A DNA stretch of 64,000 nucleotides from Nitrospirota bacterium (lineage in GTDB: Bacteria; Nitrospirota; Thermodesulfovibrionia; Thermodesulfovibrionales; UBA6898): contig JACRLQ010000057.1 of NCBI GenBank assembly GCA_016215155.1, positions 10,943 through 74,942 on the forward strand. The letters run 5' to 3'. How positions within the stretch are numbered: position 1 is the first letter of the stretch; every line of letters begins with the position of its first letter. The position numbers and the translations under genes were made by a program. This document shows, one piece after another, positions 38,530 through 46,238 of this stretch. The notes beneath the pieces are model-generated. The model was not told the DNA's origin. It was given only the letters and a program-made list of their open reading frames with translations, and ran no database searches.

Positions 38530-38546
38530 CAAGGTTTAAGATCAAA

Positions 38547-38710
38547 CAGGCTGTTGAAAAACTCTTGTTTTTGTCAGTTAAAGCCGTCATACTCGTGCTT
38601 AAGGCACCTACTGTTGGCGAAGGCGGGTATCCAATCTCCTTAAAAACAATGGATTCCCGTCTGCACGGGAATGACTGTAAAATATCTGAAAACACTTTTT
38701 CAACAGCCTG
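38547..38710. repeat. MITE-like palindromic repeat, copy C (complete, with clear terminal inverted repeats)
   Basis: The TIRs are CAGGCTGTTGAAAAA (38547-38561) and TTTTTCAACAGCCTG (38696-38710). Hairpin 1 (38586-38632) carries the 25-nt loop insert. Hairpin 2 is GGATTCCCGtctgcaCGGGAATGAC (38651-38675). Confidence 0.75.
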
Positions 38711-38793
38711 CAAAGATGTGACTCTGAGTTGCCTCCCCGTCCGTTTTATTAACGGGCGTGCCCCTGTTCCCAGTCCTTTACCCGAAGCCAGGA

Positions 38794-39030
38794 TTAAAGT
38801 TCATCCCCTATAATAGGTTTGCGACTTGGGACTTTAGCTAATATTTTCTTGAAGTCCTCTTTTTTTGCTCTTTTTGCTCTCTGTTTCAAATAGTCTTCTG
38901 TCATTAAAGCGGAGATTTTTTCAGATACAGCGGAAGAAATAAACTGATTGATGGATACCCCTTCTTTTTTTGCAATGTCCCTGATATGCCGATGTATTGA
39001 TTCAGGCAGACGCAAACTTAAAGTGCTCAT
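38794..39030 (-). CDS. Ribbon-helix-helix antitoxin (annotated in databases as HicB-family/CopG-like)
   Basis: 78 aa. MSTLSLRLPESIHRHIRDIAKKEGVSINQFISSAVSEKISALMTEDYL is a recurrent RHH antitoxin pattern found next to PIN toxins. It overlaps the PIN stop by 4 nt. Confidence 0.7.
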   Translation of the reverse strand: MSTLSLRLPESIHRHIRDIAKKEGVSINQFISSAVSEKISALMTEDYLKQRAKRAKKEDFKKILAKVPSRKPIIGDEL

Positions 39031-39452
39031 ACTAATTCCTCCAATAGGTTTTTGGGAGTTATTGTTTTAACGTTAAATCTTTCCACACCTTTAAAGTCTT
39101 TTGTATTGTGAGTTGTGATAAGTCCTGCGCCGGAGGCGACGGCTAATTCCAGCAAATGGTCATCATTAGGGTCGGACAGATATGGACGCCACAAAAAATA
39201 TATCTTTTGATGTTCACTCTTCAAACATAAATAATCCAATATTTTTTCAACTTCATGGTCTGATAAACCTAATATCGCCTGATTTCTTTTCAAAATATCT
39301 TCGTACTCAAAAAGCAACGTCGTGGATAAAACTGCCTGAAGTTTTCCTTCATCTATTGCTTTCAATATCTTAAAAGAAGCGCCTTGTGAAGAATAAAGCC
39401 CTGCAAATAAAACGTTCGTATCAAGAATAATCCTTAATTTCTTTCTCGGCAT
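39027..39452 (-). CDS. PIN domain toxin (putative toxin-antitoxin system toxin component, PIN family)
   Basis: 141 aa. ILDTNVLFAG (first acidic residue), FEYEDIL and DPNDDHLLELA are the PIN acidic-residue patterns. Confidence 0.8.
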   Translation of the reverse strand: MPRKKLRIILDTNVLFAGLYSSQGASFKILKAIDEGKLQAVLSTTLLFEYEDILKRNQAILGLSDHEVEKILDYLCLKSEHQKIYFLWRPYLSDPNDDHLLELAVASGAGLITTHNTKDFKGVERFNVKTITPKNLLEELV

Positions 39453-39526
39453 ATAATAATACTATATTCGGTATCACTAAATTGTCAATATCTTATAATT
39501 ATTCTTGCAAAAAGCTGCACTAAATC

Positions 39527-39557
39527 AAAGGATTCAAAAGTCTGACCCCTCATTGCC
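39527..39557. repeat. Junction motif R1 (GGGTCAG core)
   Basis: The minus-strand reading is GGCAATGAGGGGTCAGACTTTTGAATCCTTT. It shares 16 nt with R2 and the GGGTCAGAC..AATCCTTT pattern with R4. Confidence 0.6.
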
Positions 39558-39620
39558 CATTGTCTTTGAAACAAAGAAACCTGGATTCTCCATTTTCCCT
39601 AGTTCTCTCCCTAAAAGCTG

Positions 39621-40934
39621 CTAGATAAACAGGAAGCTCTCCGGGTTTTTGTTGCAGAACTTGTCCATCAATACGACGCCCAGAGACGACGACATGAAGT
39701 TCTGCATATATTTCGAGTAGGAGTCGATCGCCATCAGATTTATCATGAAGTCCGACCCGAATATTATTTTGTCTTCGAGCCTCTTTTGGACCGGATCGGT
39801 CAATGATTCAAAAAGCTTTCCTAACTCCTCGTAATAGCCCGGCTTCACCCCGCGATAGGATATATCCACATAGACGTTGTCATATTTGCACGCGAGGTCA
39901 GCCGCGGCCCTTCGCCAGCTCTTCTCACTGAACAGTCCGGTCATGTCCTCGTTGTCGCGGTCGTCATGACCCAGGTGCGCGAGGTTTAAGCGGAGCTTGG
40001 GATACTCCTCCAAAACCTTTGCCCAGCGCGCCGGATCGGCATAGTCCTTGTAGGCCGGGTCGGTCAGAAACCCGCCGTTGCTGCAATGCGTGGTAACGGG
40101 GATATTTTTAGCGACGCAGTATGAGTAGAAATCCCTCAACTTTTTCCAGCCGGCATTAGGGATCATGTCCGTCTGCTCTTTGTTGTTCATCGGCCACGGG
40201 TTAAAGCCGGTTGGAGGATAGACCTTGATACCCAAAAACACGTCCGGGCCTAACGCATCCAGGTCGCCTTTGAACGTCCGCCAGTTATATGCGAGAATCC
40301 TCTCCCTGCGGACAGAGCATGACTCAGCGCCGGTGAAGTTAAGGAAATATTTGTCGAGCACCTGATTGAGCGTCTGACTGTCGTCGCCATTAGGGTCAAG
40401 GTTATATATCAACGGGTTTATGCCCATGAACGGATGGACCTCAAGCATCGGGACCTCCTTCTTGGATTCCTTTTCTCTGTAATAGTCGGCGATGCCAAGA
40501 CAGACGTCCCTGACCTGATCGGCCATCGGCTTCCAGCGGACGGAATACACCAGCTTGCTGTTTTTTTTCTCGTTGCCTCTAAGGGCAAAGTCCATCAAAA
40601 GCGGGGTGAGAAATACTTTTTCATATGTCTCCTCGCTGTTAGGTATGCAAATGCCTTTGCCCCATACCCTTTTCTGGAGGTCCTCCTCCATCTGGAGCAG
40701 ATAATCGCCAAGCGGGGTCTCCATTATAGCCAGCAGACTCAGTATCCTTTCGTCCTTCCTGGTCAGGCTCAACAGGAACTTCTGAGCCCCGGGAAAGCCC
40801 GTGAGCATCACCGCGACCCCAGCAGCAATCCTGGTCCAAGGACCAGCCTCGCCGAGGTAGCGGTTGATTACGGCTGAAAGGTTCGGATGTCTCAGGTTCA
40901 TTACGTGACAGTGAGCGTCGTAGAAATATGACAT
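39621..40934 (-). CDS. Amidohydrolase-superfamily metal-dependent hydrolase (Amidohydro_2-like), function unknown
   Basis: The start is set at ATG 40934, after AAGGAGGG. Candidate metal ligands are DAHCH (HxH) at the N-terminus, GIKVYP, TTHCS, LAHLGH and FGSDF. The protein is 437 aa with a long insertion after the HxH strand. Confidence 0.6.
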   Translation of the reverse strand: MSYFYDAHCHVMNLRHPNLSAVINRYLGEAGPWTRIAAGVAVMLTGFPGAQKFLLSLTRKDERILSLLAIMETPLGDYLLQMEEDLQKRVWGKGICIPNSEETYEKVFLTPLLMDFALRGNEKKNSKLVYSVRWKPMADQVRDVCLGIADYYREKESKKEVPMLEVHPFMGINPLIYNLDPNGDDSQTLNQVLDKYFLNFTGAESCSVRRERILAYNWRTFKGDLDALGPDVFLGIKVYPPTGFNPWPMNNKEQTDMIPNAGWKKLRDFYSYCVAKNIPVTTHCSNGGFLTDPAYKDYADPARWAKVLEEYPKLRLNLAHLGHDDRDNEDMTGLFSEKSWRRAAADLACKYDNVYVDISYRGVKPGYYEELGKLFESLTDPVQKRLEDKIIFGSDFMINLMAIDSYSKYMQNFMSSSLGVVLMDKFCNKNPESFLFI

Positions 40935-41069
40935 TTTGATTCCCTCCTTGCGTTTCATATTATGAATAAAAGACAGCCGCCGTTTCCCGAGCCATTATAT
41001 TCACGCGGCCTCACATAAATGGGCGCTGTCCTTTTTAACTATTTTTTTATACCCCATAATTCAAGATCA

Positions 41070-41090
41070 AAGACCTGACCCCTCATTGCC
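41070..41090. repeat. Junction motif R2 (GGGTCAG core)
   Basis: The minus-strand reading is GGCAATGAGGGGTCAGGTCTT. It lies exactly where the IS110-type transposase frame loses homology. Confidence 0.6.
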
Positions 41091-41480
41091 TTATACCCTC
41101 TGTACTTCTGGATCGCTGCCGGGTTCGCCAGATGCACTTCATATCCTTCAATTATAGGTCGATTCCACCGCCACTCCTGCGATCTTCTTCCTGTGCGGCG
41201 CAAGTGCCGTCAGTATCTGCTCCGGATCGTTGGCAAGCTTCTTCGCCAATATCTTTTTGCCCCCCTCATCAATCACTGCCACGTAACTGTTGCTTGAATG
41301 TAAATCGAAAGCCGCGTACAATTTCATCATGCACCTCCAAGGGTAAAGTTTGAGCTCTTTCCCTTAGCATATCAGGTGTCTTGCACTTGGTATGCTTCGG
41401 AGGCGCCTTTATATGATTATCAGGTCTTGTAAGTTGACGTAGGTCCCGCAAATGAAGAATGTTAATTTACAAGACCTGAC
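41091..41480 (-). mobile_element. IS110-family insertion sequence remnant (5' leader plus about 90 N-terminal codons, frameshifted and 3'-truncated)
   Basis: ORF 41148..41330 reads MMKLYAAFDLHSSNSYVAVIDEGGKKILAKKLANDPEQILTALAPHRKKIAGVAVESTYN, a typical IS110 DEDD N-terminus. After a TGA, the +1 frame continues EGYEVHLANPAAIQKYRGYK, with the expected WYWL... segment missing, and then breaks at R2. The normal size is over 300 aa. Confidence 0.65.
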
Positions 41481-41557
41481 CCTGTTGAGCTTCAGGGAGA
41501 ATAAGGTTGCATCAAGTTTCTTTAAGTCTTTTTCGGCGCGACGTTCAATAAGCAGAT
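41399..41557 (-). pseudogene. Truncated RelE/ParE-family toxin gene
   Basis: The ATG overlaps the Phd stop (ATAATG). MPFDLLIERRAEKDLKKLDATLFS is a RelE/ParE N-terminal pattern. Similarity ends at motif R3 (about codon 27). The remaining 25 codons read into the IS110 leader. Confidence 0.5.
41421..41483. repeat. 18-nt inverted repeat in the IS110 leader, including junction motif R3
   Basis: CAGGTCTTGTAAGTTGAC (41421-41438) pairs with GTTAATTTACAAGACCTG (41461-41478), 16 of 18 positions complementary. The two mismatches are G-T on the plus strand. R3 reads AGGGTCAGGTCTTGTAAATTAAC on the minus strand (41483-41461). Confidence 0.6.
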
Positions 41558-41766
41558 CAAACGGCATTATTGTTTTGCTCTGCTAAAAAATCCTCAAATT
41601 TTCTATAGGACGGAGTGCCAGTGCGTATCTTTGCCAGATCGTCGAGGTCCTCCTTGTCTTCAAGACGCTCAAGCATTTCTTTGTAGTCCTTGATGTCAAT
41701 AATAACGGCATTGGCCTTACCGTTTTTCATAATAAGCTGTGGTTTAGTTTTTACTATTCTTGACAT
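41557..41766 (-). CDS. Phd/YefM-family antitoxin
   Basis: 69 aa. PQLIMKNGKANAVIIDIKDYKEMLERLEDKEDLDDL is typical of the family. The RBS is GGAGGA. Confidence 0.75.
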   Translation of the reverse strand: MSRIVKTKPQLIMKNGKANAVIIDIKDYKEMLERLEDKEDLDDLAKIRTGTPSYRKFEDFLAEQNNNAV

Positions 41767-41802
41767 TTTTCCTCCATTAAATCAGGACTTGGTTGTAGTT
41801 TA

Positions 41803-41831
41803 ATTATAACGTGTTACCAAAGGATTGACAA
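41803..41831 (-). promoter_or_regulatory. Putative sigma70 promoter of the phd-relE remnant
   Basis: On the minus strand: TTGTCA (41831-41826), a 17-nt spacer, then TATAAT (41808-41803). This is about 35 nt upstream of the phd ATG. The -35 element lies inside motif R4. Confidence 0.45.
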
Positions 41832-41843
41832 TGTCTGACCCTT
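41819..41843. repeat. Junction motif R4 (GGGTCAG core)
   Basis: The minus-strand reading is AAGGGTCAGACATTGTCAATCCTTT. Confidence 0.55.
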
Positions 41844-42062
41844 GTCCGGCACAGTTTTTGGGGTAAGGTTAGTCCTAATCCTCTGTCACGTTTATGTTGT
41901 CTAAATTGGCAACGTCCCCTACTTCACGTCCCGGTGGCGAATGATGCTCTGCTAACAGGTAACGAGATTTCAAGTAGATCGGCGTGCTAGAAACGCTTAA
42001 ACTAGCGCCATTCTAGCCTGTCCCCTTATCATTGACCCCGGTCGGATTCCTCTTTTGGATGT

Positions 42063-44393
42063 CTACAGACCTGTATTTTGAAAAAGCCCCATTGAGGATA
42101 ACTTTTCCTTGACGATTTCACCGCACTCAATAACATATCTATTGTTCCTTATCATTGGACTTGCTGCAAGGTGACGTTTTTCAATTTCAGAAAAGATTCC
42201 AGCGAAGATTTTGATTTGGTCGGGTGCCAATTCTTGTTTCCATTTATTGAAAACCTTAAATATGCCTAGCGCCGCTCTAAACGGATAGTGTCTATCCTCT
42301 TTATGCATTTGGGGCAGAATTATTTTCTTTGCCTTATCTAAGAGAGCAAGAGAACTGTCTTTTGAATCATCCAATAACGCTTTAGCAAGAAGAAGCCGAG
42401 CATAATGATTGTCAATCTGATAGCAATCGTACCCCTTGATTGCCCTGGCAAGACTGTATGCATCCTCGAAATACTTTTCAGCCCTATCCAACTGTTCAAG
42501 AGTCAGCGACGCAATTCCATATTGCAACCAAAACTGTGGATCTTTATTGGTAAAGTGAAGGTTCTTAATGCCTTCATAGAATGTGATAGTAGTTTGTAGC
42601 CTCTGTTTCTCAGGCAGCATTAACGCGATATGTTTAAAGCGCATCAGATTCTTTAATATTTCCTTGTATTCGCGTTCAGTAGCTCTATCGTCTGCTTCCT
42701 TAGCCATTTGTATCAACGTTTCTACCAGAAATTTCGGCTGGAATAGTGTGTGCAGTAAATGAAGCCCTAGTACTGCTGAGCGCGCTTTCACCTGATTTGT
42801 AGAAAAATCAACTATCGATTTTAGACCTTGATATAGCTTTATATATGACCATCGTATATTTTTACCGCCAAGGAGCTCTTGAATATGAGAATATGATGGA
42901 TAATGGTTCATCACCTCCAGTACAAAAAGACAGATTAGAATTCTTTGAATCTCTTTCGGTTCTGACGCATCATAAATTATCTCGCGATATTTTTTTGTTA
43001 TGTGCCCGGATTTCAGCACATCTACCAGCAACGACGGCAACTCTTGCCCACATTTGGCCTCTATATAACTTATCTTCCTCTCAGTTGGCCATGAGAGGTG
43101 CTTCCCCCATAGGCCGTATTTATCAAGGAGTGACACTGCATCCCTTATTTCTTCATTTGTAAGTTTGGTACAATCTACTTCCACGCATGAACTTTTCAGC
43201 TTTTCATATATTTCAGGCGCGAAGATCTCATGCACATCCGTTCGTGCAGTCAGGAGTAGTATTACGTTATCCTTCTTCGCATCTATAACCCATTTAATCA
43301 AACGCATATGACGGTGATAAGATTCAATTATAAGAATGATCTTGTCGCCCGTCTTTAGGATCTCTTCCGTCTCTCCGATCTCTTCTCCACCCTCAGCACG
43401 AAGTGTATATACGCTCCATCCAGCGCCATAAGCCATGAGTCCAAAAGCATCGACTATAAACGATTTGCCACACCCTAAAACACCGTGAAGTATCACATGT
43501 TTCTTATTATTCAGGAGCATATTTTTTATCTTTGATAATGGCTGTCTTCGCACTACATAGTCATTCGCCGCAGGTGCATTAATTTGTGCAAGAATCGACT
43601 CATTAATAATTATAGGTTTATATGATTTAGAGACGTCCCTAACGAGGTGGGCAAAGGCTTCCACGCCGATCCGAAAAACCTCTCCAAAGTCGTTCAGCTC
43701 TAGTGCTTCTAGTTCTGTCTCAGCGCTAGGAGGTGCTATGATAAAAATAGCCTTGTCGATGACATTTTCTGCGAGCAAGACTCTTGCAATGTCTATGTCG
43801 TATAGAGAATAGCCCACAAAAACAATGACTGCTGAATTCCGCACATCATTTCTAAAATGAAATGCCCATCCTGATTCCTCGAAAGATTCGGCTGCGTAAC
43901 TAGCAGAGGTCAGCTTAAAACTTTTTGACAACTCATCTTTTGATAAGGTATCCACAGACCCGTTGATATGAACAACCAGATTTTGGAAAGACACTAAACC
44001 ATGGGGGTAGTCTTTTGCTGTTACACTTCGCGTAGATCTACCTATGGCTTTGCTTGCATATTCAAAGACTGTGTCGTAATTCGTGGTATAAACACGCTTC
44101 CACTTGAGATGTGCAAGTATCTTGTGCGATTCGGCAATATTTTTTACCGTGTAATTATCTTTAAGCAGCGAGACCAACTCATCTGGTGTTCTTTTCCGCA
44201 GAAATGCTGCAGACGCCCGATCAAGGTCAGCTTGACTACTGAGGCCGCTAGCAGTAATCAGCATTTTTGATAGCTGTACGCCGGAAGGAATAGACTTGTT
44301 AGATATGCTTAGTGCACCGTATGAAAACCCTGCGCCAGTAAAAAGTAGGCCTCTTCCATCTATCACGAGTTTTATTGCATCTTCTATCTTCAC
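42063..44393 (-). CDS. SIR2-like domain / P-loop NTPase / C-terminal TPR-like helical repeat protein (STAND-like; Avs5-like architecture)
   Basis: The likely start is GTG 44393, after GGAGG. The ORF track uses TTG 44405. The SIR2_2-type motifs are LLFTGAGFS, VYTTNYD and VVHINGS. Walker A is ILHGVLGCGKSF and Walker B-like is KIILIIES. The C-terminal 300 aa are helical, e.g. LEQLDRAEKYFEDAYSLA. Confidence 0.75.
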   Translation of the reverse strand: MKIEDAIKLVIDGRGLLFTGAGFSYGALSISNKSIPSGVQLSKMLITASGLSSQADLDRASAAFLRKRTPDELVSLLKDNYTVKNIAESHKILAHLKWKRVYTTNYDTVFEYASKAIGRSTRSVTAKDYPHGLVSFQNLVVHINGSVDTLSKDELSKSFKLTSASYAAESFEESGWAFHFRNDVRNSAVIVFVGYSLYDIDIARVLLAENVIDKAIFIIAPPSAETELEALELNDFGEVFRIGVEAFAHLVRDVSKSYKPIIINESILAQINAPAANDYVVRRQPLSKIKNMLLNNKKHVILHGVLGCGKSFIVDAFGLMAYGAGWSVYTLRAEGGEEIGETEEILKTGDKIILIIESYHRHMRLIKWVIDAKKDNVILLLTARTDVHEIFAPEIYEKLKSSCVEVDCTKLTNEEIRDAVSLLDKYGLWGKHLSWPTERKISYIEAKCGQELPSLLVDVLKSGHITKKYREIIYDASEPKEIQRILICLFVLEVMNHYPSYSHIQELLGGKNIRWSYIKLYQGLKSIVDFSTNQVKARSAVLGLHLLHTLFQPKFLVETLIQMAKEADDRATEREYKEILKNLMRFKHIALMLPEKQRLQTTITFYEGIKNLHFTNKDPQFWLQYGIASLTLEQLDRAEKYFEDAYSLARAIKGYDCYQIDNHYARLLLAKALLDDSKDSSLALLDKAKKIILPQMHKEDRHYPFRAALGIFKVFNKWKQELAPDQIKIFAGIFSEIEKRHLAASPMIRNNRYVIECGEIVKEKLSSMGLFQNTGL

Positions 44394-44470
44394 ATTAACC
44401 TCCAAAATTATGATCTATAAATACTAAGCCATGGCAGTAGACAAGTCGAGGTCTCAGTTAACGCGGCCCT

Positions 44471-44553
44471 CAGCCGACCCCGGCAACCAGCGAAAATAAA
44501 ACATAACAAGGCCCCACGGGGTCGGCTGGAAGCGCCTTGTTATGTTTTATTTT
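44471..44553 (-). promoter_or_regulatory. Interleaved perfect inverted repeats (two mutually exclusive hairpins) upstream of the SIR2-NTPase gene
   Basis: A is CAGCCGACCCCG (44471-44482) and A' is CGGGGTCGGCTG (44517-44528). B is AAAATAAAACATAACAAGGC (44493-44512) and B' is GCCTTGTTATGTTTTATTTT (44534-44553). The order is A-B-A'-B'. The function and strand assignment are inferred. Confidence 0.35.
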
Positions 44554-45358
44554 GGTGTAATTCCACCAAATTAGAAAGGGAGGATTAACGTGAAAATAAG
44601 AGTTTTTTTGGACGGGCAAATATACTTTGGGAAAGAACATAAAGCCACTGCAAAGGCAGTTATGACTTAGGTAATGCATGCAATATTGGAAACGGCCGTA
44701 TTCATCCATGCGCTGGAAAACGGAGAGGCACTTTTGCTGCACAAATCGCAATTTGAAAGGGCACATCTCATTGTTTCGGAAACATAACCAGGCATTAACC
44801 CATTCACGCGCGCGTGAACTCGATGACAGCGCATTTTGAGATAGACGCTTTATTAAAACAGAGCTATTAGGAAAAGTAATTAGAGCGCTAAAGGTAAGTG
44901 ACAACTGAATTCTGATATTTACCGCCCGGGTTTGCGATGCCACCCGACCTGATAATATTGGAATTTGCATGTGAGTTCGGAGATATTTATGTTTCGTCAT
45001 TATTGATTCCCGCTATTAAAGTACACTATTTTCAAGTTTTTGGGAAGAAGAAAGTTATGGAGGAAAGCAGGCCTGTCCCGTCACCCCGCTGTTATCGGCT
45101 TTAGCCCCGCCTTTACAAGGAGGGGTTGGGGAGGTATTGGTATAAATTGTCTGCGCAAAAAAAGCGCTTTTACCAGGCCGTCGTTCCCAGCGCTCTGTAT
45201 TGACATCAGTATAACCAACCAGTATTCTAACAGTATGAAAACATCGCAGCTTCTTGAGGCCATAAACAGGGCATGTACGGACATAGAAACTCCGGATGAC
45301 AAGATTCTCAGGCAAAAGGCATTACTGCATTATGAAAAGAAAGTTCTCATAGAAAAGT

Positions 45359-45475
45359 ATTGATCTCGATAAAGCATTTCTTTCTGAAAAAATGGGCACA
45401 CTACCGTCATCCAGAATGAAACAGATTCTTGAAGGAGTGGCGCTCCTGATGAATCCCAGAGATATTTCTTATTAA
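45359..45475 (+). pseudogene. C-terminal remnant of a PemK/MazF-family toxin gene
   Basis: The frame reads IDLDKAFLSEKMGTLPSSRMKQILEGVALLMNPRDISY-stop. This is the usual MazF/PemK C-terminal pattern (..id..rl.ek.G.ls...m..i...l). There is no N-terminal part and an in-frame stop lies just upstream. Confidence 0.4.
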
Positions 45476-45601
45476 TAATGGGAACTTATAACGTCCGTTT
45501 TAATCTATCACATACATTGTTTCTTATAAAAAAACGGGGTCTTATGCTGATAAGATAGACGGATTATGTATGGTGTGTTATAGTATGTCCATAAGGTGTA
45601 T

Positions 45602-45841
45602 ATGAATACAGCGCGACTGAACATTACTTTGCCGGAAGATGTTGCCAACATGCTGTCTGATGTGAAAAACAAGTCCTCCTATATTGCAGCCGCCATACGG
45701 GAAAAAAAACTGCTCGAAGAAAAAGCAAAAATGAAGAAGAACCTTGAGCTTGCCTATAAGCAGGCCGCATCCGAGGATTTGGAAACTTATGGGGATTGGG
45801 AAGACACGCTGAAGGACGGTCTGGAAGATGATGCGTGGTGA
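45602..45841 (+). CDS. RHH-type antitoxin (MazE-like partner of the downstream PemK/MazF toxin)
   Basis: MNTARLNITLPEDVANMLSDVKNKSSYIAAAIRE is an RHH N-terminus. It overlaps the toxin start by 14 nt. The start is chosen at ATG 45602; the ORF track uses GTG 45596. Confidence 0.7.
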   Translation: MNTARLNITLPEDVANMLSDVKNKSSYIAAAIREKKLLEEKAKMKKNLELAYKQAASEDLETYGDWEDTLKDGLEDDAW

Positions 45842-46163
45842 TATATATTTTGTGGATTTTGAACCCTCAGTGGGTGCCGAAATCAGGAAGAGAAGACCCG
45901 CGCTGATTATTTCGTGCGACGAGGCGAATAAGCATCTGCGGACTGTTATGGTAATTCCTTTTTCCTCGAAAACAGCAAATGTCTATCCATTTGAGGTTTT
46001 TGTGAGGAGTGTCGATACCGGACTCGAGGTTGATTCGAAATTGAAGATCCCACAGATGAGGGCGGTTGACAAGGGCCGCCTGAAAAAATATATCGGCGCT
46101 CTTGATAACGACATTATTGGGGAAGTTGAAAAGGCAATAAAACTGCACCTAGCCATGGACTAA
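45828..46163 (+). CDS. Type II toxin PemK/MazF family endoribonuclease
   Basis: MMRGDIYFVDFEPSVGAEIRKRRPALIIS...VIPFSS...PQMRAVDKGRLKKYIGAL, 111 aa. Confidence 0.9.
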   Translation: MMRGDIYFVDFEPSVGAEIRKRRPALIISCDEANKHLRTVMVIPFSSKTANVYPFEVFVRSVDTGLEVDSKLKIPQMRAVDKGRLKKYIGALDNDIIGEVEKAIKLHLAMD

Positions 46164-46238
46164 GGGATATTGGTATAGTTGAAAGTTCTAAGTCCCCAAA
46201 GATTATTGAAAAAATAAAGCGGACCAGGGAGGACCAGT

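Follow-up and report, generated by a model that had tools for sequence, protein, structure and literature searches.

A probable Avs5 (SIR2-STAND) antiphage receptor gene in a Nitrospirota genomic island, and its 33-codon deletion relative to an intact allele

A 64,000-nucleotide stretch of Nitrospirota DNA (contig JACRLQ010000057.1 of GenBank assembly GCA_016215155.1, positions 10,943 to 74,942 of the forward strand; hereafter the window) carries on its reverse strand a stand-alone gene for a SIR2 and P-loop NTPase protein, which raises the questions of which defense family the gene belongs to and whether this copy of it is complete. An initial annotation, made from the letters alone, had recognized the logic of an Avs-type sensor, in which a SIR2 effector, a STAND NTPase and a helical sensor lead to NAD+ depletion, and had left the choice between Avs5, a DSR-like group and a new clade undecided. 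That logic was right in kind, the DSR-like and new-clade options did not hold up, and the placement in Avs5 is firm. We assign the gene, at a probability of about 0.9, to Avs5 (AVAST type 5, SIR2-STAND) as a single-protein antiphage receptor nearest to the lineage of EfAvs5 from Escherichia fergusonii, with an EfAvs5/PaAvs5-like mechanism expected by homology. The gene belongs to the family, retains the conserved catalytic and nucleotide-binding residues, is organized as a single gene and lies in a mobile, defense-type island.

The gene and its three-part product of about 776 aa are real, and the coordinates of the initial annotation were exact. The mechanical open reading frame (ORF) spans 42063..44405 (-) and encodes 780 aa from a TTG that overlaps the GGAGG of the ribosome-binding site; we prefer the GTG at 44393, which gives 776 aa and is supported by the family N-terminal consensus and by the NCBI model MBI5102331.1 ("SIR2 family protein" of a Nitrospirae/Nitrospirota metagenome-assembled genome, MAG), which is 100% identical to the 776-aa product. 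Residue numbers (N109, K314 and so on) follow the 780-aa numbering of the ORF track. The gene and its parts, with the nucleotide-binding oligomerization module abbreviated NOD and its nucleotide-binding domain NBD, are as follows.

42063..44393 (-), putative avs5 gene, 776 aa plus stop, single-gene AVAST type 5 system (from the ORF listing; same as MBI5102331.1)
44399..44403 (-), Shine-Dalgarno GGAGG, 5 nt before the GTG at 44393, read directly from the sequence
43623..44393 (-), SIR2 (SIR2_2) NADase effector domain, residues ~5-261, from Pfam and invariant residues
44073-44087 (-), TTNYD, within the SIR2 domain
43959-43970 (-), HING, within the SIR2 domain
43506..43622 (-), what remains of the SIR2-NBD linker, the second half of the FISNA-like region, residues ~262-300, aligned to EfAvs5 ~331-366
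43173..43505 (-), NBD of the STAND NOD, with G313, K314, Y363 and R388 invariant
43461-43484 (-), Walker A GVLGCGKS, K314 aligned to EfAvs5 K379
43323-43340 (-), Walker B IILIIE, E361 aligned to EfAvs5 D426
43242-43244 (-), sensor arginine R388 of the TAR motif, aligned to EfAvs5 R453
42741..43172 (-), helical and winged-helix domains of the NOD, residues ~412-555, boundaries approximate, from the AlphaFold2 (AF2) model, the continuous EfAvs5 alignment and a sub-threshold Cdc6_C match
42066..42740 (-), C-terminal all-helical repeat (TPR-like) sensor domain, residues ~556-780, from AF2, weak TPR matches and the family profile

Each of the three parts has support beyond its motifs. Pfam SIR2_2 scores 41.4 bits against a cut-off of 24.5 (2e-10), and in a family alignment of 45 sequences (the window protein and 44 relatives) N109 and D111 of TTNYD and H146 and N148 of HING are invariant, which bears out the SIR2_2-type domain and the candidate residues N109, D111 and H146 of the initial annotation. 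Both motifs named there, Walker A and the Walker B-like one, were likewise correctly read: G313 and K314 of GCGKS are invariant, as are Y363 and R388, and E361 of IILIIE aligns with EfAvs5 D426. The AF2 model of the window protein (mean pLDDT 89.5) has a Rossmann-type N-terminal domain, a P-loop alpha/beta domain and a C-terminal third that is all-helical from ~556 to the end at pLDDT >90, so that the proposed helical C terminus also stands; within it a W626-L627-Q628-Y629 motif is invariant in the same alignment. TPR families (weak matches at 615-679) and the Cdc6_C winged helix (residues 382-432) remain below threshold in Pfam, and some homologues (P0078 and P0118) pass the cut-offs of both nSTAND_NTPase5 and nSTAND3.

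The assignment to Avs5 is carried by the match to EfAvs5, the filament structure of which is PDB 9JAP (Wang et al., Nat Commun 2025, PMC11897194). A phmmer search of all PDB chains gave a single strong match, 9JAP_A (E=3.5e-74, query residues 12-256 and 281-686), and an intact allele of the gene, introduced below, aligns to it in one stretch, 8-715 (E=7e-80, 29% identity). The 45-sequence family profile matches 9JAP at E=2.8e-200, with positions 5-777 of 806 in the profile against 45-830 of 869 in the chain; because this alignment runs end to end, the C-terminal sensor is homologous too. Profile searches thus put the gene firmly inside a characterized family, which answers in the negative the suggestion that it might be novel. 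Foldseek, a check that the initial annotation had proposed, ranks 9jap_A first when the AF2 model is searched against the PDB (1.3e-41, 25% identity), followed by chains of 9nc9, an "AVAST5 filament" (~1e-17), and then by human SAMD9, DSR2 and ThsA. All seven residues of the EfAvs5 NAD+ pocket (A41, T140, N141, Y142, N180, Y202 and S233) are identical in the window protein (A25, T108, N109, Y110, N148, Y170 and S200), and EfAvs5 K379, D426 and R453, the last of which senses the gamma-phosphate, align with K314, E361 and R388. In a midpoint-rooted neighbor-joining tree of 45 homologues plus EfAvs5, built without Avs5 clades 1, 2 and 4 and without an outgroup, EfAvs5 is nested among the homologues retrieved with the window protein, its sister group containing Vibrio and Desulfobacter proteins among others, and the window protein falls in a neighboring subclade with a Geomonas limicola protein and metagenomic sequences. 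The family comprises 744 cluster representatives at 50% identity (E<=1e-30), nearly all of 800-830 aa, with named members from Acinetobacter, Vibrio, Paraburkholderia, Achromobacter, Janthinobacterium and Sphingobacterium.

What the window protein would do is suggested by published work on its relatives. EfAvs5 is inactive as a monomer and, through SIR2-SIR2 contacts and contacts between the NBD and the winged-helix domain (WHD), forms helical filaments and bundles, within which its SIR2 dimers gain NADase activity; it binds ATP and does not hydrolyze it, T7 gp1.7 triggers its filamentation, and defense is lost with N141A, K379A or D426A, with mutations of the interfaces and on removal of the sensor domain (PMC11897194). 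For PaAvs5 the trigger is JADA, a jumbo-phage protein, and proteins of three clades hydrolyze NAD+ in a matter of minutes once they have sensed it (Muralidharan et al., Mol Cell 2026, PMC12931631). In the literature Avs5 is defined by Sir2 (PF13289), an nSTAND3-type NTPase and helical repeats, and is divided into four clades that share only ~20% identity. By homology to EfAvs5 and PaAvs5, the window protein likely has the same activity and mechanism. It would rest as an autoinhibited ATP-bound monomer until its C-terminal helical-repeat domain recognizes a phage-encoded protein; release of the NOD and SIR2 domains would then permit assembly into dimers and helical filaments, assembly would switch on the SIR2 NADase, and the collapse of NAD+ would stop phage replication.

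Several observations weigh against this assignment or its reach. Identity to EfAvs5 is only 29% (24% in the NOD), the activity of the window protein and its subclade is argued by analogy with homologues, and a placement in "clade 3" would follow from proximity to EfAvs5 alone. nSTAND3 falls below the Pfam cut-off on the window protein (20.9 versus 27.2 bits). Foldseek TM-scores to the filament structures are low, at 0.35-0.38; such values would be expected if AF2 models a closed state and the filament subunit is open, which fits the description of Avs5 AlphaFold models as "closed" (PMC12931631) and is not proof. None of 6 accessions looked up, MBI5102331 and five homologues, occurs in Table S1 of the Mol Cell 2026 study, a published list of Avs5 homologues that has PSI-BLAST matches of PaAvs5-1 among its rows (PMC12931631). 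Finally, neither PADLOC nor NCBIfam calls Avs5: scans of the window protein and six homologues (PADLOC-DB v2.0.0) gave SIR2-domain matches only, to ThsA and Dsr1/2. The PADLOC run that the initial annotation had recommended was informative on the SIR2 domain and silent on Avs5, and EfAvs5 itself behaves alike, receiving from this PADLOC copy just ThsA SIR2 matches and no Avs5 call. Because EfAvs5 likewise goes uncalled in PADLOC, the missing call reflects a library gap and is evidence neither against membership nor of novelty, and we dropped the reading of this silence as "not Avs5"; the control was run in PADLOC, and NCBIfam was tested on this point with the window protein only.

The second question, whether this copy is complete, turns on one junction.

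43610..43611 (-), junction at which the window lacks, in frame, 99 bp (33 codons) of the intact allele, where the segment lies at L001:859-957; the missing peptide is DAPVILNYWEKTEPVKTTRLPTDQEIIAYMTEG

The intact allele, P0121 (809 aa), is a cluster mate of the NCBI protein and comes from a 3,177-bp Logan contig (L001) of run SRR12113407, which is 100% identical to window 41391..44468 over 858+2220 bp (3,078 bp) except for the extra 99 bp. The initial annotation had found the protein short for its class, which is true of the 776-aa product against ~800-850 aa for Avs5, because of this private 33-aa in-frame deletion, and is not true of the intact allele. The missing segment is present, at a length of 32-41 residues, in all 44 other aligned relatives, and nearly all of the 150 representatives listed align in two stretches with an offset that jumps by ~33 at the deletion site. 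It holds an invariant G294 and a near-invariant D284 (intact numbering) and is modeled by AF2 in the intact allele as a confident strand (270-272) and helix (284-293). It corresponds in EfAvs5 to ~299-330 (20 subtracted from the chain numbers), which covers the first half of a stretch, 300-366, that the authors term FISNA-like (PMC11897194); L267 and E271, the counterparts of EfAvs5 I303 and E307, lie within the segment. A complete FISNA-like SIR2-NBD connector is thus found in P0121 and lacking in the window allele. With alignments of equal depth, AF2 reaches a pTM of 0.85 on the intact allele against 0.66 on the deleted one, and pLDDT in the deleted model drops below 50 at the junction (residues 266-269). 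Loss of the connector bears on the function of the window copy, not on its evolutionary membership.

How this allele arose and what it does admit three explanations. The deletion could be an artefact of assembly or binning of the MAG, in which case the organism's own Avs5 would be the intact one of 809 aa. Only one NCBI MAG contig has the deleted allele on record, a search for further contigs that encode the exact 776-aa product returned nothing, and the intact allele comes from an independent assembly of a sequencing run and is identical over the remaining 3,078 bp; de Bruijn-graph mis-joins, however, normally need a repeat or microhomology, both of which we looked for at the junction and did not find, and the deletion is exactly codon-phased, which makes an artefact unlikely in our view. 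Alternatively, the allele may be real and its product still a functional Avs5, the segment being dispensable or serving to retune activation through its threshold or oligomer geometry. The frame is kept, the remainder is 100% identical with no further decay, and every domain is modeled at high pLDDT, but a dispensable segment is hard to reconcile with its retention by every aligned relative (none of the 44 lacks it, and the ~33-residue offset recurs in nearly all 150 listed representatives), with its invariant Gly and near-invariant Asp, with the fall in pTM, and with its coverage of the I303/E307 equivalents, given that the EfAvs5 I303A/E307A double mutant forms no filaments and has neither NADase activity nor defense (PMC11897194); we hold this explanation doubtful. 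The third, which we put at rather less than even odds, is that the deletion is a real, recent natural allele that segregates with the intact gene in an environmental Nitrospirota population and constitutes a separation- or loss-of-function variant of an NLR-like receptor.

Provided that the deletion is real, the window allele would be somewhat more apt to be impaired in filament-dependent activation than to retain it, because the missing segment includes the counterparts of the I303/E307 filament interface. Set against this, each domain of the deleted allele is still given a confident fold by modeling, no decay is seen elsewhere in the gene, and the effect of the deletion is a prediction. If the natural-allele explanation is true, the connector has lost its N-terminal half, and with it the filament interface on the NBD side, while the sensor, ATP site and NADase stay intact; such an allele might relieve an autoimmunity cost or yield a non-filamenting, possibly dominant-negative form, and it would point to the connector as a switch element of Avs5.

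As for the family itself, membership of another SIR2 defense family (DSR1/DSR2-like or Thoeris ThsA-like) or of a new SIR2-STAND clade distinct from Avs5 is very improbable: Dsr1, Dsr2 and ThsA models are the sole matches in PADLOC and NCBIfam, but these matches extend over the SIR2 domain alone (residues 80-204, for instance, on the 1275-position Dsr1 model), the NCBIfam scores of 30.9 bits for Dsr1 and 18.7 bits for Dsr2 compare with cut-offs of 1400 for models of ~1200-1275 positions, the window protein has neither a SLOG domain nor a DSR-type C terminus, and the full-length match to EfAvs5, which is nested within the family, is stronger by tens of orders of magnitude. DSR membership was rejected on the lack of a full-length Dsr1/Dsr2 match, the SIR2 region alone being matched, and ThsA membership on a PADLOC match confined to the SIR2 part (residues 7-210), the remainder being STAND NTPase and helical repeats. 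The Avs5 family is already known, and on present evidence the window gene is not a new SIR2-STAND clade.

Comparison with characterized systems shows how much of the Avs5 plan is shared. EfAvs5 and the window protein have the same order of SIR2, FISNA-like connector, NBD, helical domain and WHD, and helical sensor, and EfAvs5 aligns end to end with the window family at 29% identity (SIR2 37%, NOD 24%, C terminus 29%); the two have identical NAD+ pockets, keep the Walker A Lys, the Walker B acid and the TT/AR arginine, and are single-gene systems. They differ in host, the window protein being from a Nitrospirota MAG of another phylum, and in subclade, in the Walker B acid (Glu versus Asp-Asp in EfAvs5), in the sensor motif (TAR versus TTR) and in the connector segment absent from the window allele; nor is there reason to expect T7 gp1.7 as the trigger. 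PaAvs5-1, -2 and -3 and EcAvs5 (PMC12931631; Gao et al. 2020) and 9NC9 share the tripartite layout of Sir2, nSTAND3-type NTPase and helical repeats, a size of ~800-830 aa and NAD+ hydrolysis as output, and the single-acid Walker B of PaAvs5-1 (IIFIE-R) resembles the IILIIE-S of the window protein. They belong to other clades, and the jumbo-phage JADA trigger should not be assumed for the window protein; 9NC9, the second-best structural match, is 13-14% identical in the Foldseek alignment and gives no phmmer match at E<=1. DSR1/DSR2 and ThsA have a homologous SIR2_2-type NADase domain and an NAD+-depletion output but lack a STAND NTPase and resemble the window protein in the SIR2 domain only; in DSR2, which forms tetramers, the C-terminal sensor is a different one, and in ThsA a SLOG domain is present and gcADPR acts as the activator. 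Human SAMD9/SAMD9L resemble the window protein in Foldseek across three regions (SIR2-like, P-loop NTPase and helical; E~1e-11), a likeness already reported for PaAvs5 (PMC12931631), yet share ~12% identity and are much larger, with extra domains and a different effector chemistry.

Upstream of the gene lies what the initial annotation had called an unusual structured leader.

44471-44547 (-), two interleaved perfect inverted repeats in the avs5 5' region, CAGCCGACCCCG/CGGGGTCGGCTG and AAACATAACAAGGC/GCCTTGTTATGTTT, the latter followed by a T-run

The leader does fold better than shuffled controls (z=-4.4), and its inverted repeats are unique in the window. It cannot be aligned upstream of the closest homologues, in which GGAGG and the start codon form the sole conserved upstream block, so that the structure is not a feature of the Avs5 family. 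In form it resembles a terminator paired with an anti-terminator, or else a terminator that belonged to an upstream gene now decayed. Neither tRNA genes nor Rfam families turned up when the whole window was scanned, hence no tRNA integration site and no known riboswitch in the avs5 leader.

The surroundings of the gene are those of a mobile island, with the following parts.

38530..46238 (strand not assigned), 7.7-kb low-GC insertion island between cimA and osmC, with avs5, toxin-antitoxin modules and an IS110 remnant
39621-40958 (-), 445-aa Amidohydro_2 protein, GC ~0.52, above its neighbors; no PADLOC match
41148-41330 (-), 60-aa N-terminal fragment of an IS110 transposase, after the 52-aa ORF
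41557-41766 (-), Phd/YefM antitoxin (Pfam), followed by a 52-aa ORF with no family match
45596-46163, MazE/PemK pair, comprising a PemK/MazF toxin and, before it at the place of the antitoxin, an 81-aa ORF with no significant family match

The AT-rich island with toxin-antitoxin modules and an insertion-sequence (IS) remnant, as first described, is borne out by the GC profile (0.39-0.44 at 41-46 kb versus 0.50-0.56 in the flanks) and by Pfam matches of the neighbors, which also include a HicB-like/PIN_3 pair. Four loci (L006, L007, L064 and L069) from the nearest genomes available, which are Nitrospirota/Thermodesulfovibrionales MAGs whose CimA is 82-83% identical, carry AspK-CimA-OsmC-PgpA-CinA-ThpR-RecA contiguously and lack the 7.7-kb stretch, the cimA-osmC gap being ~40-65 bp in the first two and ~90-270 bp in the others; because cimA directly precedes osmC in these relatives, 38530-46238 is an insertion. 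Many other relatives have no osmC or recA within 10 kb downstream of cimA, and the cimA-osmC site may be a variable hotspot.

Within the island, the 52-aa ORF after phd is, from its position and N terminus, probably a truncated toxin of RelE/ParE type, and the Phd module looks to have been broken by IS activity (41148-41567); the same arrangement of phd and 52-aa ORF occurs on L001. A short frame at ~45370-45490 (+), encoding ...IDLDKAFLSEKMGTLPSSRMKQILEGVALLM, lies in the 1.2-kb ORF-poor stretch 44394-45595 and has a weak, sub-threshold match to the extreme C terminus of PemK/MazF (E=0.054); it may represent the decayed remains of another MazF-like gene, lying upstream of the MazE/PemK pair that is intact. 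PADLOC gave no matches on the neighboring island genes. avs5 itself stands alone, with no partner gene conserved across the window, L002 and L004, and its homologues are single genes in defense or mobile contexts. The two closest-homologue loci contain, on L002:1549-10368, AbiEi_4, a DUF1883-TIR protein, a KAP NTPase and a DUF4062/HATPase_c_4 protein and, on L004:5007-14421 (Geomonas limicola), an IS110 fragment, a resolvase and an integrase.

What is new here is an uncharacterized Avs5 subclade in environmental Nitrospirota and Desulfuromonadota-type hosts, together with a putative natural connector-deletion allele. The experimentally defined Avs5 family is thereby extended to environmental bacteria of the Nitrospirota/Thermodesulfovibrionales type, an extension of modest practical value, and the populous EfAvs5-related family behind it is documented by its 744 clusters. 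Because the branch that includes EfAvs5 is unseen by the PADLOC v2 copy, such genes will be under-called by automated defense annotation. The pair of alleles, 809 and 776 aa long, constitutes a natural test of the need for the FISNA-like connector in filament-dependent activation.

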